Made by a program: the position numbers and the translations under genes | Notes under the pieces: model-generated | The model's database searches: none | Told to the model about the DNA's origin: nothing | What the model saw: the letters and a program-made list of their open reading frames with translations, nothing else | Shown: piece by piece, positions 1 to 14,071 of the stretch | How the letters are laid out: each line of letters begins with the position of its first letter | Numbering within the stretch: position 1 is the stretch's first letter | From: an uncultured Gemmatimonadales bacterium | GTDB taxonomy: Bacteria > Gemmatimonadota > Gemmatimonadetes > Gemmatimonadales > GWC2-71-9 | Length of the DNA: 64,000 nt | Direction of reading: 5' to 3' | NCBI GenBank assembly: GCA_963730185.1 | Contig: CAVSQW010000014.1 | Coordinates: 1-64,000 of the forward strand

Positions 1-37
1 AGGGTGGTCGGGGCGTCGGTGCGGGGCTGGAGCGGGA

Positions 38-1654
38 TCAGAGCGGGAGGACGTCGTTCGCGTCGGCGGTCGCGGTGGTGAGGGGCCCATCCCGAAGAGT
101 CGCTCCACGGTCGCGAGCATCGAGGTGTGGTCGAAGACGTGTGGTCGATGACCCCGCGCTGGGTGTACGGGAGATCACCAGCGCCGGACCCGGACGCCGA
201 GCTGGTCGAACTTGAAGCCGTGCTGGACGTAGAGTCGGCTGAGAGGTCGCCCGGGGGCACGGCCGGCCGCCGGCTCGACGTGGTCGTAGAAGCCGCCGTG
301 CTCGTCGAAGGTGACCATGAGCAGGCTGTCGCTCCCAGTGGGGCGAGTTCCGAATGGCCTCGTAGACGTCCTTGATCAGCCGCTCACCCCGGGTGACGTC
401 GTCGAGCGGATGCATCGAGTTGCCGCAGGTGTAGTCGCCGGGGCCGGTGACGTCGAACTTGTGGGAGCCGTATTGTGGCTCGATGAAGACAAACTTCTCG
501 CGAAGGTCGCCGCGTTCACCTCGTATTGAAGTCCTCGAAGTCGCGCAACCGGCCCTGGAGCCGTTCAGGTTCATGCCCTTCAGCGCGAAGCTCACCGGAA
601 ACTCGTCGCCTGGAAGATCCGCCAGGGGATGCAGTCGGTGTCGAGAGGTCGAAGATGTTGCCGTTCTCGAAGCGATAGCCGTCGACCGTGGTCGAGGAGA
701 CGATGTCGAGCTTGGCCGGGCTCCCGTCCAGGCCACCCGAGGTGCCGGCCAGGCAGGAAGAACGGTTGGGCCAGGTCGGCCCAGGGAGCGATGAGAACCA
801 CTGATCGCAGACGGCGAACTCGCGGCCAGCTGTTCAGCACCGGGAGCTGGCCCGGCGCGAAGCAGCTGCATGATCCGCTCGGGCGTCGCGGAGCCGTGTC
901 GAGGTAGTTGGCCATGAACCCGGAGTTGTCGACGGCCGGGTAGCCGCCCAGCACGGGTCGTAGACGGCGCCGCCGCCGCAGAGGGAGACCAGGGTGTTCT
1001 CGAATTCATGGCCGGGGTCTTCGTCCATGTCCTTGAGCTGGAAGTCGGCCGGCGCGCTGACCGGGACCGGCAGGCCAGTGACCGGGATTGACGTTCTGGT
1101 GGTGGCGGGATCGAAGCCGGCGTTGAACGTGGTCGGATCGCCGAGGGGTCGACGCCGGTGATTCCGCTGAAGCCGAGCATGTGGTCGAAGGAGCGGTTCT
1201 CGAGCATCAGCACGAAGACGTGCTGGATCGCGGCGCGGTCCCGCCGGCCTCGGCCGAGGAGCGCCGGAACAGCGCTTGGCCAGGCTCAGCATCAGGCATC
1301 GAGGGTGTCCCAGGCCACGCAGACGGCCTGGAGGACCCAGGAGAACACGACGCAGAGCGCCTTGACCACCCAGGCGAAGGCCTTGCAGACCCACTTGGCC
1401 ACCCAGTACTAGGCCTTGCAGACCCACTTGGCGACCCAGTAATAGGCCCTGGCAGAAGAACCCGGCGATGCAGTTCCAGGGCGTGTACCAGTGGCACTTC
1501 TCCCAGGAGGTGCACTGCTCGACCCTTCGTCGGCCCAGGCTCGAGCATTCGCTGGAGCCCTCGTCCGCCCAGGAAGTGCACTCGTAGTCGAGCTGGTCGT
1601 CCAGTTCTTACAGGTGATGACGAGCGTGTCGACCCACTTGGTGCAGGTGGACAT
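38..1654 (-). CDS. Phosphoesterase (acid phosphatase / phospholipase C-like) with Cys/Trp-rich N-terminal extension; multiply frameshifted as given
   Basis: Motifs HVFVLMLENRSFDHMLG, DPGHEF, FVFIEPQY, SMHP..DV..GE.LIK.VYEAIRNSP.W spread over several frames; N-terminus MSTCTKW at 1654. Confidence 0.7.
1379..1448. repeat. Two tandem 33-bp units encoding (Y)YWVAKWVCKA on the minus strand
   Basis: ggccttgcagacccacttggccacccagtacta followed by ggccttgcagacccacttggcgacccagtaata. Confidence 0.85.
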
Positions 1655-1664
1655 GGCATTCCCC

Positions 1665-2042
1665 CTAGGGTTCGTACTGGGCTCGGAGGTGGCGATAGAG
1701 GAGGGCGAGGCGGAGCCGGGCGACTCCGACGCCGATGAGCTTGCCGGTGAGGCCGGCCGCGAAGACGAGGGCGGCCCCGAGGAGGAGGCTCCGAGTCAGG
1801 CCGCCCTGGAGGACGACCCCGAAGTGGAGGCGGTCGACGACCAGGGCGAGGAGCGCGATGAGGGCGAAGGCGCCGCCCAGGCTGCAGCCGCACTCGCCGT
1901 GGAGCGCCTTGGCGCGTTGGACGTAGGGGAGGAAGCGCTCCCGCTCGCCGGGCCGGGAGCGCAGCAGCTGGTCGAGGACCGACTCGGTTTGGGACACACC
2001 AGCCCCCAAGTACGGGGAGTCGAGGGTGATCGGCTGGACCAC
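1665..2042 (-). CDS. Hypothetical two-TM membrane protein with ECGC motif
   Basis: 125-aa ORF with two hydrophobic stretches, ending 10 bp before the phosphoesterase start. Confidence 0.55.
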   Translation of the reverse strand: MVQPITLDSPYLGAGVSQTESVLDQLLRSRPGERERFLPYVQRAKALHGECGCSLGGAFALIALLALVVDRLHFGVVLQGGLTRSLLLGAALVFAAGLTGKLIGVGVARLRLALLYRHLRAQYEP

Positions 2043-2139
2043 TTCAAGTTATGGCGAATCCCGGTTCGCGTCGACGGGTGGCGCGCTTTGGGTCACCGAG
2101 GGGGCATGCTGTGCCACATAATTCCTTATCGCCGCGGGG

Positions 2140-2344
2140 GTGCTGCATAAGGAGGTGCTCGCCGTACTTATGCTGCGGGCCCCGCTCGGATGGGTGGCCA
2201 GCGCCGCCTCCGGCGGCCGGCCAGCGAAGGGCCGGAAGTGTCGGTTCGCAAACAGGTTGCGGAGGGTCTGGCCGGCGGTAACCCGCGTGCCCGACGAATT
2301 TGTTATCTTGCGAGCTGGAGTCCACGCAGGTCAAGTAGTTAGGC
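2140..2344 (+). other. Candidate attI-like site at the head of the cassette array
   Basis: GTTAGGC core at 2338-2344 pairs with the end of cassette 1 (GCCGCCTAAC, 3262-3271). No attC hairpin or RYYYAAC partner upstream; GCATAAG/CTTATGC inverted repeat at about 2144-2175. Confidence 0.5.
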
Positions 2345-2363
2345 GGCCAGGTACGGAGACGTG

Positions 2364-2885
2364 ATGAACGAGCCACTGACTGAAGACATCCAGCGAATGG
2401 TCGGCACCGCACGACGCTATTTGGTGGACGCCACGCTCCTTGAGCGCAGCCTCGACGTGTCGTCTGACGGGTCATATCTGCTCCGTCTGACAGCACTTGA
2501 GATACTTCTCAAGGCCCTCCTTCGTTTCCTGGGGAAGGTTCCAGGTCGGCATCATCGGTACCAAGAGCACTTCGCTGCGCTCCCACCGCAGGCTGCCACT
2601 CGGTTGATCCAGGCCGCGGCGCTGCGGATGGGACCTACGGCCGCATACTCCGATACGCCAGCGCTTTTGGCGACTTGGGCAGCCAACTTCGTCGCCCTTC
2701 GGTACCCTTATGAGGCATACAACGGCATGACGGCCGATGAAGTCCACAGGCTGGGCGCAGCTTGGCTTGCTGGTGGTGCCAAGCCTGAGGAAGCCACCTT
2801 TCGGTACCATCCCCTTGAGCTCGATGGCTTCCTGTGCGCGTTGCAGGACTTACTACACACGCCGGGCCACCCGATCGGCGCATGA
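2364..2885 (+). CDS. Cassette 1a: HEPN-like domain protein
   Basis: ALEILLKAL, HH.Y..HF..L and LRYPYE motifs resemble the HEPN ExxLK...H...RYP pattern. Confidence 0.6.
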   Translation: MNEPLTEDIQRMVGTARRYLVDATLLERSLDVSSDGSYLLRLTALEILLKALLRFLGKVPGRHHRYQEHFAALPPQAATRLIQAAALRMGPTAAYSDTPALLATWAANFVALRYPYEAYNGMTADEVHRLGAAWLAGGAKPEEATFRYHPLELDGFLCALQDLLHTPGHPIGA

Positions 2886-2925
2886 GCCTCGAACGCGCCG
2901 ATTGCTCTCACCACACCAGAACTCC

Positions 2926-3270
2926 ATGACCGCGGCGAGCCGGGTCGGACTGAGCCACCTTCTTGACCGCATTTGGACCCTGGTCTGTCTTTTCGGCCTC
3001 GGGCTACTTCCCCTGATCGGGGGTCTTTGCGTCCTTGGCTGGCAAACCGTCCACTACCTGCAAGCCGGCACCTGGGCGCCAGTCTCATTCCTCGACTTCC
3101 TCCACTGGGCGAACGTTCGCCGCTCTTGGATCGAGTCGCCGAGCTCGTGGCTCGGCATCTGGAAGTTCTTCAACTGGCTTCCTGCGTCACTTGCTGGAGT
3201 CGTCTACGGTGGCGCCATATCAGTGATATTCGCCGCCGGCATGAAGGACGACGAATCGAGTGCCGCCTAA
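2926..3270 (+). CDS. Cassette 1b: small Trp-rich membrane protein
   Basis: 114 aa, two hydrophobic helices; its TAA stop lies within the attC GCCTAAC box. Confidence 0.65.
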   Translation: MTAASRVGLSHLLDRIWTLVCLFGLGLLPLIGGLCVLGWQTVHYLQAGTWAPVSFLDFLHWANVRRSWIESPSSWLGIWKFFNWLPASLAGVVYGGAISVIFAAGMKDDESSAA

Positions 3271-3400
3271 CAAGATGCTGCAGCGGACCGGCGCCGAGGC
3301 TCCGCTTCCGAAGGTGCGGCCGCGGCTCCATGTTGCTGCGAGGCCGCCGCGGCCGCTTAGTTCCGACCGGCGCCGGCCGCTGAACATCTGAACGTTAGAC
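3265..3400 (+). repeat. attC site 1 (136 bp)
   Basis: GCCTAAC...GTTAGAC; arms GCTGCAGCGGACCGGCGCCG / CGGCGCCGGCCGCTGAAC with unpaired G and A. Confidence 0.92.
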
Positions 3401-3422
3401 GTCCAAAACCCTACCGTTCCGA

Positions 3423-4148
3423 ATGGCACCTGACCTCCGTGCGGTCGCCCTTGGCGACGAGGTTCTGACCTCGATTCGCCTCATCGAGCATGGCCTTGCA
3501 GCTGTGCAGCGCCTCGGCGCGGCAAACGACTTCTACTACGCGCCGCTCCTCTTGCTTTCCACCGGCCTCGAGCGGCTAATGAAGTGTGTCGTCTGCCTCC
3601 GCGCACTGGAAGCGGGAGGTCAGTACCCAACCCGAAGTAAACTGAAACGCTTCTCTCACGACCTTGCGGCCCTGCGCGATGCGGTCGTTCGCTCCTGTTT
3701 CGACGACGCCTACTGCTCCCGCCAAGCAGCGGCGGCCGACGCTGGCTACTTGACTGACGATGCTCGGGGCCGGCGCTTTCTGGAAATGTTGAGCACGTTC
3801 GCGCAAGCAGCTCGCTACCACAACTTGGACACGGTGTGTGGCGAGGCTCCCGATGTCGCCACTCCGGATCACGCGTGGGCCGCTCTTGAGATGGAGATCC
3901 TCAAGGACTATCCCGACTTGCTCGCATCTCTTCGGTCCGGTGGCCCTTTGGGCGAAGTCTACTCGCGGATCAACACCGAGCTCGTTGGGCATGTCGAGCG
4001 AACAGCCCGAGCACTATGCCGCCTGTTTACACTAGGGCCGCTCGGCGAAAGGGGCCAAATGCTAACTGGCTATATCGGACCCTTCCTGTTCTTGCAGGAC
4101 CGGGATCTGGGAACCAGGGCGTACCCGCTGCGGAGCCCGTCGCGCTGA
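3423..4148 (+). CDS. Cassette 2: hypothetical protein, HEPN-like
   Basis: LSTGLERLMK, FSHDL and ARYHNLD motifs; fills the cassette exactly. Confidence 0.6.
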   Translation: MAPDLRAVALGDEVLTSIRLIEHGLAAVQRLGAANDFYYAPLLLLSTGLERLMKCVVCLRALEAGGQYPTRSKLKRFSHDLAALRDAVVRSCFDDAYCSRQAAAADAGYLTDDARGRRFLEMLSTFAQAARYHNLDTVCGEAPDVATPDHAWAALEMEILKDYPDLLASLRSGGPLGEVYSRINTELVGHVERTARALCRLFTLGPLGERGQMLTGYIGPFLFLQDRDLGTRAYPLRSPSR

Positions 4149-4149
4149 C

Positions 4150-4287
4150 GTCTAACCAAATCTTGAACTGGACGGGCGCCCGGCCCTCCGATTTGCGGAG
4201 TCGCGGCCGCGCCGCCATGTTGGTTGGAGGATGGCGCGGCCGCTCAGTTCTGAGCGGCGCCCGCCAGTTAAGATTGGGCCGTTAGGT
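4150..4287 (+). repeat. attC site 2 (138 bp)
   Basis: GTCTAAC...GTTAGGT; ATCTT[G]AACTGG[A]CGGGCGCC pairs with GGCGCCCGCCAGTTAAGAT. Confidence 0.93.
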
Positions 4288-4329
4288 GGCGTCGGCCCCC
4301 GCCGACCGCCACCAGCCCGAGGTTGGCTT

Positions 4330-5553
4330 ATGACTCGCACGCTGGGTATCGGTTGGCTGGGTATCGGTTGGGCGCTGGCAGCGGCGATGCTACTCGGGTG
4401 CGGCGCCGACCGTGCACCGCTGGTCCATGTCCGCGACAGTGCTGGGACCCGGATCGTGGACAATTTCCGACCGTCAGGCCTGCGGTTTGAGCTGGACTCC
4501 GTGCCAGTGATCGACATTGGGCCCGAGGGAGGGCCAGGCGCCGAGTTCGTCAGCAGCCCGGTATCAGCCTTGCGGCTCCCAGATAAACGGATCATTGCCG
4601 CCGGCTGGGCAATGACCCAGGTCAAAGTGTTCGACTCAGCGGGGCGGTGGTTGCGCGATGTTGGCCGCGCCGGAGCTGGCCCGGGGGAGTTCGTCGGCCT
4701 GGGGTTCGTCTTCCCGCTCTCGGCAGACAGTGTCCTCACGTTCGAGCCAATGAGTCAGCGAGTCCAGCGCTGGACCCCCGCCATGAGCTTCGATCGGTTG
4801 GCCATTCTCACCTCCCCGCCTGATCGACCCACGGCTTGGGTACGGGGCACCTTTGACGACGGATCGCTCCTCCTTGCCACTAGCCTTCCGGACGAGGCGA
4901 CGAGTACCTCGCTCACCACCGGGATGGTCACCACGCTGAGTCGGGCGGCTTCGTCGTCGGCCCCCTGGGACTCGCTAACGGCATTTCCGAGCGCGCCGCG
5001 GCTTCGCCGCCCCAGCCAACCGACGACGACCTATGGTGGCCCCCTATTCGTGCCGGAGCCAAGCTACCATGCTCGTGGCTCGCGGCTCGCGTTTGCCTCC
5101 GGCGCTCGGTTCGAAATCGAGATCCGGACAAAGACCGGTGCTCTGCAGATGATCATTCGCCGTCCATCGACGGTGCAGGAGGTGTCTGACGCCGACTTCG
5201 ACCGCGCGGTAGCGGCGTGGCGGGCGCGATTCCCAGCCGCCCTCCAGGCCGAGCTTGAGCCCGCCCTTCTGAAGGCATCGCCCCGAACCCGCCCCCCGGT
5301 CGCGGAGGTTTGGCTCGCTGGCGACGGCCGCATCTGGGCCGTCTACGGTGATCCGACCATTGGCGAGGCGGCCCGAGCCAGCGTGTTCGATCACGAAGGC
5401 CTGTGGGAAGGCGACATTGAATTGCCAACCGGGCTCCAGATCAACCAGATAGATGCGGACGGCCTCCTCGGCACTTTCGAAGACGCCGACGGCTTCCGTC
5501 ATTTGCGTTTCTATCAGTTCGTCTCCACCAGGGACGCCGCAGGCCACGAATAG
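4330..5553 (+). CDS. Cassette 3: 6-bladed beta-propeller lipoprotein
   Basis: Lipobox-like LLGC, VRDSAG..IV.N, and FDSAG.WLR.VGR.G.GPGEF motif. Confidence 0.8.
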   Translation: MTRTLGIGWLGIGWALAAAMLLGCGADRAPLVHVRDSAGTRIVDNFRPSGLRFELDSVPVIDIGPEGGPGAEFVSSPVSALRLPDKRIIAAGWAMTQVKVFDSAGRWLRDVGRAGAGPGEFVGLGFVFPLSADSVLTFEPMSQRVQRWTPAMSFDRLAILTSPPDRPTAWVRGTFDDGSLLLATSLPDEATSTSLTTGMVTTLSRAASSSAPWDSLTAFPSAPRLRRPSQPTTTYGGPLFVPEPSYHARGSRLAFASGARFEIEIRTKTGALQMIIRRPSTVQEVSDADFDRAVAAWRARFPAALQAELEPALLKASPRTRPPVAEVWLAGDGRIWAVYGDPTIGEAARASVFDHEGLWEGDIELPTGLQINQIDADGLLGTFEDADGFRHLRFYQFVSTRDAAGHE

Positions 5554-5558
5554 CCGCC

Positions 5559-5700
5559 ACCTAACCCGTGCCTGAAGGCTGCCGAGGCCGCCGGGCATCC
5601 AGCCCGGAATGGCCCGGCAGCCGCAGCCGCTCTATACTGTTGGAGGCCGCGGCCGCGGCTGCCCCCAGCGGCCTCGCAGCTTATGCACTATCCGTTAGGC
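5559..5700 (+). repeat. attC site 3 (142 bp)
   Basis: ACCTAAC...GTTAGGC; arms GCTGCCGAGGCCGC / GCGGCCTCGCAGC. Confidence 0.9.
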
Positions 5701-5711
5701 GGCGTCCCGCG

Positions 5712-6680
5712 ATGAGAATACCTCCAGAGCTCCGACCTATGCTCTTCAGCGGCATCCCGTGGTATGAGCAGCTCGCTGAGCGGCCGTCAACGGAGCCGAC
5801 CGCGTGGTTTCTACTCCGTGATCCTGAGCCTGAGTGGTACGTACAGCTTCTGAATGCGACTATTGAGTTCCTTCAGCGGCACAAGCTGGTTCCGCTCTAC
5901 CGGGGCCGGCTACGAGCAATCCGGCCCGGCGACCTTACGCCCGGTCGCGCACAGAGTGAACGTCGCAACGTATCCCAGCCGATCTGGGATGTACTTAACG
6001 AGCCCCTCGTCGGCCTCGTGCTGGAACGCGCGGCCGGCTGGACGCTGCTCCAACCAGATCCGCCGGGGCGGTCGGGTCGCCTGGGCGACTGGCTCTTTCG
6101 GACCCCGTCGGGACGGGATGTCTTTGTTGAAGTGAAGAGCCCCGCTGAAATAGAGGCGACTACCGGGTCGGGTACGAGGTCTGACTACCGGCCTCGAATT
6201 CGCGCGGAAGTGCGCCGAGCGTACGGGCAGCTGCCCTCGGACGGCCGGGCGACGATGATCGTGATTGTCGGCAACGAGATGGTACGGGTGCCGTTCGGGC
6301 TGATGCTCGGCGACCTGTTTCAGGCCATGTTCGGTCAGTATGAAGTACGACTCCGGCCTTTCGAGCAGCCCTCGAGAATCACCTATCAGGGCCCGTCCTG
6401 GAGGGACATGTTGGTCCACGGGACCAAGCACCGCCAGCTGGGTTGTCTATGCGGCTTGTTGAAACGTGGGGTGGACCGGCCATTTCTCGGGTTGTATACC
6501 ATTCACAATCCGTTCGCGGACCCCACGGTTCGCTTGCCGGCCACCGACCTCGGCGGACTACATCAGTTTGCTGTTGATGACGAGCACGTTGGTCGCGAAG
6601 CGGGCGTCGATAATCACGAGGTGTGGGGCCGCCTTCAACTGCCAACCTGGCGACGCGATCCAGCCTCCGACGCCGCCTAA
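5712..6680 (+). CDS. Cassette 4: PD-(D/E)XK nuclease-like protein
   Basis: NE...GDWLF...VFVEVKS arrangement; stop codon inside the attC GCCTAAC. Confidence 0.6.
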   Translation: MRIPPELRPMLFSGIPWYEQLAERPSTEPTAWFLLRDPEPEWYVQLLNATIEFLQRHKLVPLYRGRLRAIRPGDLTPGRAQSERRNVSQPIWDVLNEPLVGLVLERAAGWTLLQPDPPGRSGRLGDWLFRTPSGRDVFVEVKSPAEIEATTGSGTRSDYRPRIRAEVRRAYGQLPSDGRATMIVIVGNEMVRVPFGLMLGDLFQAMFGQYEVRLRPFEQPSRITYQGPSWRDMLVHGTKHRQLGCLCGLLKRGVDRPFLGLYTIHNPFADPTVRLPATDLGGLHQFAVDDEHVGREAGVDNHEVWGRLQLPTWRRDPASDAA

Positions 6681-6812
6681 CACAATCTTGAACTGGACGG
6701 GCGCCAGGCGCTCCGCTTGCAGAGTCGCGGCCGCGCCCCGATGTTGGTTGGAGGATGGCGCGGCCGCTCAGTTCCGAGGCGGCGCCCGCCAGTTAAGATG
6801 TCGCCGTTAGGC
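6675..6812 (+). repeat. attC site 4 (138 bp)
   Basis: GCCTAAC...GTTAGGC; near-identical arms to sites 2 and 5. Confidence 0.93.
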
Positions 6813-6829
6813 GTCCCGTTGAGCTCCAG

Positions 6830-7695
6830 ATGCACAACGTCGTCCTTTACCTAGATACCAACCACGTATCGGAGCTCGCCCGATGCCCTACGGCCACGGA
6901 CCAGGCAGCCGTCCTGGGGCTCCTGCAGTCCGGTCGCGGGCGTCTTGCGATCTCGCTTGTCCATTTCATCGAACTGGCTGCCCCCGACTTCCGAAGCGTC
7001 GACGATGCGCGCGGTTTGCTGAGGGACGTACCGGTAGCTTGGACCGTTAGCACAGAGGAGCTATGGGACGGGGAGATCGCCGTGGCGTGCGCTCGGGCGC
7101 GCGGCCTCGAACGGCAGCCACCGCGCGTGTTCTGCGAGAATTCGCTTGATTGGTCCAGATGGCCCTCGCCAGCGTCGGGAAACGCCGCTGAGTTCCTCGA
7201 CTCGCTGATCGAGCAGCCGGCTCTGCGAGACGGACTCCTCCAGGTGGCCGACGAGTGGGCCCGGGCTTCAATGCTGAAGACCGAGGCCGCCTTGATCAAG
7301 GTACCGGGGCTTCCTCTGGAGTTGGCTGTGGACGCCCACTTGGCGGGATGGCGAGAGCGTAACGCCCACTATGCGGATGGGCTGAACGCCACCGAGATCG
7401 TCCGTGCGGTCGGCGGCTCAGTCGGATTCCCATCGCTGAACATGTTTCATCGAACCATAGAGCAGCGTTTGCGACAAGTCAGCCAGAAGAGTACACGGAA
7501 CGACATATTCGACGACTATCACGCCGCGTACGCCCCATATGCGGCGGTCACTGCGCTGGATCGCGGACTACGGCGCGGGTACGGAGTGCCGGACTTGCCG
7601 AGCTCCACCGGGTGACGGCACGGCTACGCGACGTACCCGACGTCCTGGCACGAGTTGAGAATGGCGAGCTATCGGTCGTACCGTCGACCTTCTAG
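6830..7695 (+). CDS. Cassette 5: PIN-like domain protein (probable frameshift near 7570)
   Basis: N-terminal VLYLDTN and C-terminal NDIFDDYH...ALDR acidic motifs. The ORF stops at 7615 as given, but an alternative frame continues to TAG 7695, next to the attC. Confidence 0.55.
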
Positions 7696-7704
7696 CCAGC
7701 GGAC

Positions 7705-7838
7705 GCCTAACAAAATCTTGAACTGGACGGGCGCCACCCACTCCGGTTTGCGAAGTCGCGGCCGCGCCCCAATCTTTCTAGCAGAATGGCGCGGCCGCTC
7801 AGGTCGGAGCGGCGCCCGCCAGTTAAGATTTGGCCGTT
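7705..7838 (+). repeat. attC site 5, interrupted at its GTT core by the IS110-family element
   Basis: GCCTAAC...GTT, then the IS; the remainder TAGACGGCC resumes at 9362. Confidence 0.92.
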
Positions 7839-7944
7839 GATATGACTGGGCTGCTGTCAAGGATCGTGATCTTCACCCACTCATGACCGTACCCTCCAGT
7901 GTCAGGCGACTGCGGTGAAAGAGACGACGGGCCCGGGGCTGCTT

Positions 7945-8095
7945 CGCCGATCATCCTGCTGATATACGCCGGTCAGCGGGTCCTCTCGCCGGAGCGGCAC
8001 GAAGTGGATGCGTCGGGAGCGACCTCGGTCTAGACACTCGGGTTCCGTTGGGCTGCACACGTACCGGATAACGACCAACGAGGGTTCCCCCCAGA
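7945..8095 (-). ncRNA. Candidate bridge/seek RNA of the IS1111-type element
   Basis: Minus-strand segments UUGGUCGUUA (8078-8069) and GUCUA (8035-8031) match the target halves; ACUUC (8005-8001) and AUAUCAG (7965-7959) match the donor junction halves. Flanked by CCUCG/CGAGG, CAUCC/GGAUG and GCCG/CGGC stems. RNA ends are unknown. Confidence 0.65.
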
Positions 8096-8123
8096 TCGTG
8101 CCCCGGCCACCCGCCGTCTCCTC

Positions 8124-9243
8124 TCAGGCCGCCGCCACCGCGCCGGGCTCGAGGTCCCGCATCACCGCCCAGAGAAAGCCGACCAGCTCGCGGGCGACGG
8201 CGACCGCCGCGATCTTGCGCTCCTTCCGATAGGCGAGGTGCTCAAACAGCCGGTGCAACCGATGCTGCGCTTTCCAGGCATGGGCGATCACGTCGGCCGG
8301 CTGCGACCGTTGGCGAGCCCGGAGCGCGGCCGCCACCTTGGGATAGTGCCGGTAGCTCCACGCCGCCTGCACCAACACGTGCCGGCAATGGCTGTTCCCC
8401 GCCTTGGTGATGGCGCCGAGGCGTTGGCGCGGGCCCGCTGGAGTGCTCGCGGGGCACCAGCCCCAGGAAGGCCATCAGCTGGCCGGCGGTGGCGAACCGG
8501 CGCCAGTCGCCGATCTCGGTCGCGAGCACCATCGCCGAATGGGTCTGCAGGCCGCGGAAGCAGCGGAGGCGGCCGACCGCCGGAGCGAGGTCCGGGCGGG
8601 TCGCCCGCTCGGCGATCTCGCGATCGAGCACCAGGCGGCGGTCCCGTTTGTATTGGAAGAGGGCCAGGTACTCGCGGAAGACCAGGAGGTCGTCCTCCTG
8701 GAGCGGCGACGTCGTCCGGGCCAGGGTCTCGAGCCAGGCGAGATGCCGCGGGCCCCAGTGGGGGCCGTCCCGATAGACGAGGCCCCGGCGGGTCAGGAAC
8801 TTGAGCAGATAGTGCTTCGACTGGAGGAGCTCCCGCTGGAGCGTCTCCCGGCACCGGACCAGGTCGCGGACCTGTTCCTCCGCCGCGCTGGGCACCCGGA
8901 CGGCGGTCAGCTCGCCGGCGCGGAAGAGCCGGACCAGCTGGGTCGCGTCGTACCGGTCGTGCTTGCGCTGGACCCCGGGCTTGGTGGGGATCAACGACGG
9001 GGCGATGACGGTGCAGGCGTGGCCCCAGCTCGTCAGGGCGCGGTAGAGCACGAACCCGGCCCCGCTGGCTTCGTAACAGACCTGGAGCGGCCCCTGGGTC
9101 GCCAGCCGGGCGAGATAGCGCTGGAGGGTCTTGGGCTCGTTGGGCAGGCGGTCCACCCGGGACGGGGTGGGGTCGCCGGCCGCCAGGACGGCCAGGGTGA
9201 TCGATGCCTGGTGCACATCCATCCCGACGTAGATATTGGACAT
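8124..9243 (-). CDS. IS110-family transposase/recombinase (one frameshift near 8435)
   Basis: VGMDVH, CYEAS and KHDRYDA (DEDD), LGLVPREHSSG (catalytic Ser region), ITKAGN, and C-terminal AVARELVGFLWA. Confidence 0.92.
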
Positions 9244-9419
9244 GGGCTGGTTCCTCCGACTGGCTGCGACAGTTGGTCCGGTCGCATGTGGCTCTGGCGA
9301 CTTCGGGGTCCCGAAGGAGCTAACCCACGGCGCTTCGGGGGGCCAGCCCAGTCATAACTTCTAGACGGCCCCGTATTTGGATCCTGGTGCGAATAGACCC
9401 CCTCCGCGGAGCGTCAGCA

Positions 9420-10115
9420 ATGGCTGGAACGTCGTGCACCAGATACCTTGGGCTGCTGCTGGCGGCCTTGCAGCTCGCACCCCTCCTTCAGCTGCGGGCT
9501 CAAGAGGCCCACACCATTGGTCAGGACCACCTTACCGAAGTGGCTTGCGTCGACGTGCCGTCGGGCGAGGCACGACCGGCGTTTGGTTGCTTCAACATCG
9601 GCGTTGTGACCGGACTTCACTTCGGCGACGCATCGGTGTTCTGGCATCTGCGCGCGTTTCCGAGCAGAAAGGCGGCAGAAGCCGCCAAGAGCGCGATGGG
9701 CATCGTGGTCGAGGAAGACGGGCAAGTGTGGCTCTCCGAATTCGGGCCTCGACGCGCCGGTCACGCGGGAGGGAAGGCGATTGCCGTCGTCGGACCGCTG
9801 CTCCTGCCGCCCGCAGCGAGCTACACGGCGGTTCTCTCATACGCTGTCATGCGGCCCGGCGACAACTCACGGGTGCATACACACTCGGGGCCCGAAGGCT
9901 GGTATGTGCTTACGGGAGAGCAATGTCTGGAGACACCGACCGGGGTTCAGCGGGCTCGGGCCGGCGCAACCATGACCGTGCCTTCGCATACCCCTATGGA
10001 ACTGAACGTCACAGGCAAGACGCTCCGCCGGGCGTTTGCCCTGGTCATTCATGATTCAACTCAACCGAGGGGCACCCCGTCCGATTGGAAACCCACCGGC
10101 GGCTGCAGTCATTGA
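9420..10115 (+). CDS. Cassette 6: secreted cupin-domain protein
   Basis: Signal peptide; HTHSGPEGWYVLTGE cupin motif. Confidence 0.8.
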   Translation: MAGTSCTRYLGLLLAALQLAPLLQLRAQEAHTIGQDHLTEVACVDVPSGEARPAFGCFNIGVVTGLHFGDASVFWHLRAFPSRKAAEAAKSAMGIVVEEDGQVWLSEFGPRRAGHAGGKAIAVVGPLLLPPAASYTAVLSYAVMRPGDNSRVHTHSGPEGWYVLTGEQCLETPTGVQRARAGATMTVPSHTPMELNVTGKTLRRAFALVIHDSTQPRGTPSDWKPTGGCSH

Positions 10116-10132
10116 CGATCGTGCGCTCGGCC

Positions 10133-10277
10133 GTCTAACCCGAGCGTGCGGTCTGACGAGGCCGCCGGGCATCCGGGCATTCCCGTGGCGTCGCCGGCCC
10201 GCCCGCTCCATGTCTGTTGAAGGCCGCGGCCGGGCCGGCACGTAGCGGCCTCGCAGCTGACACTCTAGTCGTTAGGC
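10133..10277 (+). repeat. attC site 6 (145 bp)
   Basis: GTCTAAC...GTTAGGC; related to site 3 (GAGGCCGCCGGGCATCC...GCGGCCTCGCAGC). Confidence 0.88.
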
Positions 10278-10920: not shown

Positions 10921-11061
10921 GCCTAACAAGCGCATAAACCTGTCCAGCGCCCTCAGCCTCGGCCTCCTTGCGGCGGGCCCCTGGCGGTGCATACTCAGAG
11001 GAAGTCAGACAATTCGCTGCGGGCGAGGAGTCGCTGGCAGCTTAAGCGCAGGACGTTATAC
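10921..11061 (+). repeat. attC site 7 (141 bp)
   Basis: GCCTAAC...GTTATAC; GCGCATAAACCTGTCCAGCG / CGCTGGCAGCTTAAGCGC. Confidence 0.85.
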
Positions 11062-13823: not shown

Positions 13824-13990
13824 AGATCCTGATCGTTGTCGAGGCCACGAACACAGGTTTCTCCAGCCGCGAGGCGGTCGAGCAGGAGATGCGAGAAGCC
13901 GTCGAGTTTCATCTGGACGGTCTCCGGGACGCAGGGCGAGCTCCTCCCAAGGCGACCAGCTATGCGACAACCATCGAGGTTGCCGCCTAA
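13820..13990 (+). pseudogene. hicB: HicB antitoxin with apparent internal deletion
   Basis: MKILIVVEATNTGFS|SREAVEQEMREAVEFHLDGL...IEVAA; GTGA overlap with hicA; lacks the usual PDLPGC segment. Confidence 0.75.
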
Positions 13991-14071
13991 CAAACAAATG
14001 CAGCAGACGAGCGCGCCGATCTTGCGGCTTTACCGCAAGCGCGCTCGCAGCTGATTTGTAGTGCGCTAGGG
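13985..14071 (+). repeat. Terminal attC (87 bp) with degenerate core (GCTAGGG)
   Basis: GCCTAAC AAACAAATGCAGCAGACGAGCGCG ... CGCGCTCGCAGCTGATTTG TAGTGC GCTAGGG. Confidence 0.8.

Follow-up and report, generated by a model that had tools for sequence, protein, structure and literature searches.

A frameshifted IS1111-type insertion sequence in the R' crossover core of a Gemmatimonadota integron attC site, with a predicted guide RNA in its tail

Bacteria capture genes mainly by means of integrons, whose sole mobile signal is the attC site, with crossover taking place between the G and the TT of the R' core. One lineage of insertion sequences (ISs) that invades attC sites, breaking them near the 5' end, was previously known. 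This is the IS1111-attC group (ISPst6, ISPa21 and ISKpn4; also ISPa25), reportedly the subject of papers by Tetu & Holmes in 2008 and Post & Hall in 2009. Here we describe an IS in a 64,000-nucleotide stretch of DNA from an uncultured Gemmatimonadales bacterium (contig CAVSQW010000014.1, positions 1 to 64,000; this whole stretch is called the window below). At window positions 7839-9361 lies a frameshifted IS1111-type element, inserted in the R' core of an attC and likely placed there (with a probability of roughly 0.8) by a transposase steered by a predicted guide RNA encoded in the element's own tail.

Three letters at the cleavage site are all that attC sites have conserved in common, and it is the folded bottom strand that recombines (PMC5371416). 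Members of the IS1111 group have subterminal inverted repeats of 11-13 base pairs (bp) according to PMC11187229, or 7-17 bp according to PMC11208160, with asymmetric extensions of 7 (or 6) bp on the left and 3 bp on the right (PMC11187229). They also carry a longer non-coding region downstream of the transposase gene (tnp), and the guide RNA is encoded there (PMC11187229, PMC11208160). In ISPst6-type elements this is a seekRNA, an RNA from the 3' tail with target-matching segments, and a promoter formed at the circle junction has been shown for ISEc11 (both PMC11187229). Targeting by IS621 and IS110 elements is programmable; their RNA is found in the left end, on the upstream side of tnp, their terminal repeats are 2-3 bp long and their core is a defined 2 nucleotides (nt) (PMC11208160).

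The IS in the window is 1,523 bp long. On the + strand its left junction reads ...TTTGGCCGTT(7838)|GATATGACTGGG, in the 5' context GGCCGTT(7838), and its right junction reads ...CAGTCATAACTTC(9361)|TAGACGGCC(9370); one T is ambiguous, so that boundaries at 7838-9360 fit equally. A perfect inverted repeat (13/13 nt, with 1,490 nt between its arms) starts 2 bases inside the left boundary and 5 bases inside the right one in the + strand view. Its length is within the range given for IS1111 members, and it is kept in relatives. The original prediction, made from the letters of this stretch, had named these junctions, the 13-bp subterminal repeats and the single shared T, all of which can be read directly in the sequence. 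Given the attC-derived empty site, the terminal extensions beyond the repeats are asymmetric, at 5 + 3 or 6 + 2 nt. Extensions of 7/3 were considered and discarded because the empty site would then be without GTT, and an IS621-like 2-nt core TA was discarded because no TA adjoins the flank at the right junction.

The interrupted attC, together with four R' bases beyond the IS, folds into a 138-nt hairpin with a free energy (dG) of -45.4 kcal/mol. The IS splits the R' core as GTT|AGAC, 1-2 nt 3' of the G|TT crossover; on the bottom strand the site is GTCTA^ACGG or GTCT^AACGG, 1-2 nt from the AA^C/G^TT integrase cut. Removal of the IS had been said to restore the complement of the next cassette's end, and this is the case: GGCCGTCTAAC at 10129-10139, the head of the next attC, is the complement of the abutted flanks, and the paralogous attCs agree. 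Two close, uninterrupted paralogues in the same array end in ...GGGCCGTTAGGT (4150-4287; end also given as CCGTTAGGT) and ...TCGCCGTTAGGC (6675-6812; end also given as CCGTTAGGC). Because the paralogues carry those ends, the inferred empty allele is what the array predicts: the abutted flanks give GTTAGAC with no duplicated bases, the comparison being with paralogues and not with an empty allele. The setting is that of an integron attC, namely an R''(RYYYAAC)...R'(GTTRRRY) hairpin after a cassette open reading frame (ORF), within an array and with an integrase in the genome.

By its architecture (13-bp subterminal repeats, a long non-coding region downstream of tnp and a DEDD transposase), the IS is of the IS1111 type. 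The earlier claim of an IS1111-type element in the GTT crossover core of an attC is borne out, the IS being inside the GTTRRRY core of a real attC. The transposase gene is on the - strand, antisense to the cassette array, with its ATG at 9243 and the stop of its second frame at 8124-8126. In transposase orientation, 118 nt precede the gene (9244-9361) and about 285 nt follow it (7839-8123); the longer 3' non-coding region, with the conserved scaffold of a predicted RNA, is the IS1111 layout. The N-terminal frame encodes 270 residues, and both DEDD_Tnp_IS110 and Transposase_20, the domain pair of IS1111-type transposases, are present in the frameshifted gene. The shift falls inside the Transposase_20 domain, where the frames join at a G3C3 run (8431-8436). 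A contig from a soil sequencing run, about 91% identical, has one base fewer at 8431, a length at which the frame stays open. The model NF033542 ('IS110 family RNA-guided transposase') scores 220.5 bits on the intact relative L011, with a cut-off of 140.

A single further copy was found in the genome, at C6:198167-199104. Its junctions, in another attC, are the same (...GGGCGTT|GATATG and ...CTTC|TAGAC); it is without the stretch matching window 8154-8715 and has kept both ends and the tail. Both genome copies (2/2) are thereby at the same attC position, and neither has a whole transposase. Because tnp is frameshifted in the window copy and the sole other genome copy is deleted, the window copy cannot move by itself, and both copies are immobile in the absence of an intact transposase working in trans. 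With genome completeness rated at 81.8%, there may be an intact copy that is missing from the assembly. In the window copy, CTCGAG stands at both edges of the stretch deleted from the C6 copy (8148-8153 and 8728-8733), which suggests a deletion by short-repeat slippage. Contigs from four soil metagenome runs (X1-X4) hold IS relatives that are 90-99% alike and span the IS only (7835-9366), not the neighboring cassettes. Three loose contig ends at 7834/7835, from four soil runs, resemble other attC arms (...CTGA, ...CGAAA and ...CTAGAG before CGTT), and this resemblance is no more than a weak supporting hint. One joint in X2 and X3 skips 8195-8443 and would represent another internally deleted relative.

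Relatives were collected from other genomes to compare their insertion sites. A DNA search of 201 genomes sampled from the same taxonomic order returned near-full-length matches at 65-72% identity in 10 other genomes and end fragments at contig edges in more. At the protein level, 33 of 401 genomes of the phylum had a transposase match at E<=1e-60, about 25 of them at 57% identity or higher. A protein atlas gave generic IS110 clusters only. Insertion events could be read in 24 cases (both ends for 21 elements, the right end alone for 3), and the IS ends are common to the relatives in this sample. In transposase orientation, the left flank ends in CTA in 17 of 21 events (ATA in 2, GTA in 1, TCA in 1) and the right flank starts with AAC in 17 of 24 (AACG in 16) and with AG in the remaining 7. 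Read on the bottom strand, GTTAGR of the R' core gives YCTA|AACG. The flanks predicted for other copies are shared by them. To score a flank as an attC hairpin, the AAC had to be closed by a GTT 45-165 nt away, with at least 14/22 arm positions paired and a dG/length of -0.2 or lower. This constrained fold with an arm-pairing count replaced an unconstrained minimum-free-energy test, which had passed 4/24 and missed evident attCs including the C6 site. The hairpin test was passed by 11/17 AAC-type flanks, as compared with 18/300 random AACG sites of the genome. The observed pattern is not chance, because these ends and junctions are seen again at another attC of the genome and in relatives from other genomes.

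Several relatives with the same scaffold occupy sites that are not attCs: L034 (G070:C24), L186 (G406:C36), L177, L179, L180, L182 and L184. Their right flanks read AGTGTAG, AGTTGAGG and AG(C/G)AG..., the guide letters fit, and some have a different subterminal repeat (ATATGGAAGGGCC). Judged by these flanks and guide letters, the non-attC relatives are natural cases of retargeting within one family.

The tails of the elements, first 16 and then 21, were aligned, and 19 were folded with RNAalifold, which predicted 25 pairs with compensatory changes at 10. The predicted fold has an outer stem, a GCUCG/CGAGC stem closing an internal loop, an inner variable hairpin, a second hairpin and a single-stranded block. 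On the 5' side of the loop are eight letters followed by AU (guide 1), which are the reverse complement of the element's own right flank. Once L036 had been dropped as a duplicate of L010, leaving 20 elements, guide 1 agreed with its own flank at 123/160 positions against a permuted mean of 80.1 (sd 6.5; 0/20,000 permutations reach 123), and for the four variable guide-1 letters of the 12 AACG-targeting elements 26/48 matched against a mean of 15.4 (59/20,000 permutations reach this), figures that overstate independence because the relatives are kin. The discrete changes of flank and guide, as read from the aligned tails, are more telling than the permutation figures. They are found in G134 (flank AACGTGTG, guide 1 CACACGTT), G061 (AACGAGG, CCTCGTT), L034 (AGTGT, ACACT), L186 (AGTTGAGG, TCAACT), L182 (AGGGGGGT, ACCCCCCT) and L177 (AGCAGCC, GGCTGCT). 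Guide 2, on the loop's 3' side, is a copy of the left flank and the first IS bases: it reads GTCTA+GA in the window, GGTA in L182, CCAACTA in L184 and GCATA+GAA in G134, whose flank is GCATA. In G134, the right terminus and the single-stranded block both read ATAGC. The complement of guide 1 (...TAACG...) is contiguous in the empty target and at neither junction, which supports GTT directly followed by AGAC as the empty site. The covariation predicts that target choice is RNA-guided, by an RNA of the seekRNA/bridge-RNA type.

Table 1. Coordinates of the insertion sequence, its predicted RNA, the target site and the integron integrases (window positions unless a contig is named).
Feature	Position	Strand	Basis
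Insertion sequence, 1,523 bp	7839..9361	-	junctions, inverted repeat, ends kept in relatives
Left subterminal inverted repeat (transposase orientation), then 5-6 nt extension outward	9344..9356	-	repeat pair; relatives
Right subterminal inverted repeat (transposase orientation), then 2-3 nt extension outward	7841..7853	-	repeat pair; relatives
tnp, N-terminal frame: DEDD_Tnp_IS110 and first half of Transposase_20	8434..9243	-	PF01548 E 4.8e-13; PF02371 profile positions 6-48, E 9.5e-8
tnp, C-terminal part, other frame	8127..8447	-	PF02371 profile positions 48-78
Predicted seekRNA/bridge-RNA scaffold, 3' non-coding region	7953..8102	-	19-sequence alignment, 25 pairs, 10 compensatory
Predicted guide 1, RNA TGGTCGTT, complementary to attC-side flank AACGGCCA	8070..8077	-	7/8 letters, mismatch G:U-compatible; covaries
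Predicted guide 2, RNA GTCTAGAC, copy of other flank GTCTA and first IS bases GA	8028..8035	-	tail alignment
Conserved single-stranded block GTATATCAGCAGGAT, copy of right terminus ATATC+A; candidate donor-end guide	7953..7967	-	alignment
TTGACA, 16-17 nt from right terminus; candidate -35 of circle-junction promoter	7855..7860	-	alignment; analogy with ISEc11
attC of upstream cassette, R'' (GCCTAAC 7705-7711) to GTT of R' (7836-7838)	7705..7838	+	fold; paralogy
R' core remainder (T)AGAC, first bases of downstream cassette	9362..9366	+	right junction
attC of downstream cassette; R'' side GGCCGTCTAAC at 10129-10139 complementary to bases right of IS	10133..10277	+	hairpin scan, complementarity
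Integron integrase, 3.3 kilobases (kb) from contig end	C13:210802-211935		TIGR02249; attCs of the window's type follow (C13:212982-213896)
Integron integrase	C6:184212-185303		TIGR02249

These features can be arranged along the published mechanism for such elements, as outlined in PMC11187229 and PMC11208160. The tail would be transcribed and fold into the scaffold with its internal loop. To the right of the insertion point, guide 1 would base-pair with the target's top strand (TAACGnnn); guide 2 would repeat the left target (nnYCTA) and the first IS bases, and the third block would be a copy of the IS right terminus. Excision would be in the form of a circle, by analogy with ISEc11, ISKpn4 and IS621. 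A promoter at the circle junction would then drive tnp and the RNA, and from the ISEc11 case we infer that its -35 is the TTGACA in the right end. The complex of RNA and transposase would finally insert the circle without target duplication.

A number of points weigh against placement of the window IS by an RNA-guided IS1111-type transposase, in addition to the kinship of the elements noted above. The transposase gene of the window is broken, or could be mis-assembled at the homopolymer, and the extensions of 5-6 and 2-3 nt are shorter than the 7/3 or 6/3 of IS1111 members. Among the 17 AAC-type flanks, six do not pass as hairpins (L005, L008 by a narrow margin, L010, L011, L012 and L035). Guide 1 of the C6 copy agrees with its own flank at only 5/8 letters, and the covariation of guide 2 is weak (91 in a 9-nt window against a mean of 84.0, which 1,397/20,000 permutations reach). 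Rfam gave no meaningful match, the only one being the chance-level hit Cgb105 over the attC hairpin, which scored 19.8 bits where the gathering score is 163. Among the sequencing runs listed, none was of RNA and none contained this locus, the best having 0.24 of the sampled words; neither an RNA nor a circle junction nor an empty allele was seen, the X1-X4 contigs stopping at the IS.

Among the alternatives, the one that fares best, and which we nonetheless consider rather unlikely, is that, with GTT intact, the IS forms the start of the downstream cassette and travels with it through the action of the integron integrase. With crossover at G|TT, the IS falls 1-2 nt inside the downstream cassette, the ORF of which ends at 10115. 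The original assignment of the IS to a cassette stands to this extent; it does not extend to the cassette whose attC body adjoins the IS. Hitchhiking on integrase excision is geometrically possible from the arrangement at the junctions: the insertion is just 3' of G|TT, the attC body up to the GTT is intact, and the R'' of the downstream cassette itself is complementary to the bases that follow the IS on the right. In addition, the genome has two integron integrases that pass the TIGR02249 cut-off, and the cleavage site they would act on shares three conserved letters among attCs, as stated in PMC5371416. However, the outer four R'-box bases are replaced (AGAC by GATA), so that the AAC/GTT triplet alone stays paired, and the window and C6 copies have different downstream cassettes. 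In G182, moreover, the duplication links the IS to the attC-side cassette and not to the downstream one. There, L008 (C1) and L035 (C8) are 93% identical over the IS, the attC and no less than 1.17 kb of the attC-side cassette, the homology stops exactly at the IS left end and both tnp genes are broken; from this comparison, it seems that a 'cassette + attC + IS' unit was duplicated passively. A broader proposal would have a second, independent RNA-guided IS lineage, programmed against the R' crossover core, the one nearly invariant stretch of cassette boundaries, with variable guide letters tuned to the host attC family, land 1-2 nt outside the integrase cut without breaking the folded attC body, become the first bases of downstream cassettes and be shuffled or exported by the integrase, as a parasite of integron mobility. 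We offer it as a speculation with the odds clearly against it.

It is less likely still that the site is chosen mainly by a transposase recognizing the folded attC hairpin, or the conserved core as DNA, with the flank-like letters of the tail as a by-product. attC sites are structured, the 11 AAC-type flanks mentioned above fold as attC hairpins, and a 2026 preprint (10.64898/2026.03.19.712850) reports that one IS110 element follows a sequence-plus-structure logic. Covariation cannot be expected of the core CTA|A, which is nearly constant. However, L034, L186 and the f7 family, which are outside attC-like sites, keep the ends and the scaffold, and their guide letters match the new flanks. Pure structure recognition does not predict such a match, which counts against it.

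The original prediction also named the IS1111-attC group (the ISPst6, ISPa21 and ISKpn4 lineage) as one that targets attC sites, and membership of the window IS in this lineage is very improbable. The two have much in common: IS1111-type architecture with the same kind of subterminal repeats and 3' non-coding layout, a DEDD transposase, site-specific insertion in attC and a tnp antisense to the cassettes (for the described group, see PMC3001079). To compare positions, ISPst6/ISKpn4-type elements were retrieved from genomes by a 20-nt end motif taken from the non-coding-region table in the supplement of PMC11187229. In 115/120 distinct right flanks, an R'' box GTTA(G/T) on the bottom strand lies 4-6 nt beyond the IS end (75 at 6, 28 at 5 and 12 at 4), and the left flanks run on into the attC arm. 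The box at this distance means that ISPst6-group elements, antisense to the cassettes, lie 11-13 nt in from the 5' (R'') end of attC, in agreement with the summary in PMC3001079 of insertion near the 5' end. Thus, that group inserts between R'' and L'', whereas the window family is at the opposite attC end, inside the R' (3') core next to the crossover, and the suspicion that the position might differ from that of described elements proved correct. The transposases are only 24-28% identical over about 300 residues, compared with 69-86% within the Pseudomonas set, which puts the window element outside the ISPst6/ISPa21 subset, described as monophyletic in PMC3001079. The ends differ as well, and the hosts are Pseudomonas and relatives in one case and Gemmatimonadota in the other. 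On identity and position, the window element does not belong to the IS1111-attC lineage.

The closest named transposase among the matches listed is that of ISSfr2, which is 42.9% identical over the N-terminal 270 residues. An ISSfr2-family copy on a Sinorhizobium plasmid is 38-41% identical to intact relatives over the full length and has the same tail scaffold (GGCACG...CTCG-guide-AT ... CTAGA...), with guide letters that fit its own flanks, but differs in its subterminal repeat (10 bp), its flanks, which show no attC, and its rhizobial plasmid host. ISSfr2 is labelled IS1111 in the source data of Fig. 8b (PMC11187229, supplement 6). According to the same source it is 23.7% identical to ISPst6, 19-26% to core IS1111 members and 53-60% to ISPye17, ISPye19 and ISMtsp6. 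Going by pairwise identities, which are not a phylogeny, the window family would therefore be an ISSfr2-like branch that reached attC sites separately from the IS1111-attC group. In the annotated ISSfr2-family element L199 (NZ_CP023065.1 557058-560246) the tail has this scaffold, and the loop letters TTTCCACT and AACTAGAC fit the element's own flanks; the guide layout may therefore hold for the whole ISSfr2 clade.

Two further systems invite comparison. The predicted RNA resembles the IS621/IS110 bridge RNA in that the sides of an internal loop address two target halves on opposite strands and a separate part matches the donor. It differs from IS621 in that the RNA is in the right end, the subterminal repeat is long and one base is shared at the junctions. 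Group IIC-attC introns likewise home to attC antisense to the cassettes, as summarized in PMC3001079, but these are retroelements with a ribozyme and a reverse transcriptase, with insertion close to the attC 5' end. In the literature covered on attC, IS1111/IS110, bridge RNA and chromosomal integrons, we found no IS aimed at the R' core, which is not proof that none has been published since most subscription papers and ISfinder were outside this coverage.

Finally, it is next to impossible that the integron integrase brought the IS in as a cassette or that the IS came to this place at random, even though it is at most 2 bases from the integrase crossover: a cassette would be expected to have G|TT on both sides and its own attC, whereas the right junction has only one T before AGAC and the element has IS ends and no attC, and chance would not give identical junctions at 2/2 copies here and in 17/24 events in relatives.

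The window element belongs to a separate IS1111-type lineage aimed at the attC crossover core, and RNA guidance of this lineage is predicted from covariation. This lineage is from another phylum than the one known before, is closest to ISSfr2 and uses the opposite attC end, which suggests that attC targeting arose at least twice by guide-RNA reprogramming. The family also amounts to a set of natural retargeting pairs, with one scaffold and different guides and sites, which should be useful for the poorly defined guide code of IS1111-type elements. For the integron, an IS just outside the cut may either block cassette exchange or travel with cassettes.

The window begins at a contig end with a + oriented cassette array. 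A simple R''/R' hairpin scan of this array found attCs at 3265-3400, 4150-4287, 5559-5700, 6675-6812 and 10133-10277, every one directly 3' of an ORF, with hairpins of 136-145 nt. Both integron integrases of the genome are oriented the same way as their own cassettes, and the window array (1-10277) probably continues the C13 integron, the adjacency being deduced from the contig ends and the type of the attCs. RYYYAAC or GTTRRRY boxes without a partner in the simple scan were seen at 10921-10927, 13985-13991 and 2338-2344, and the array may extend beyond 10277 and before 3265.

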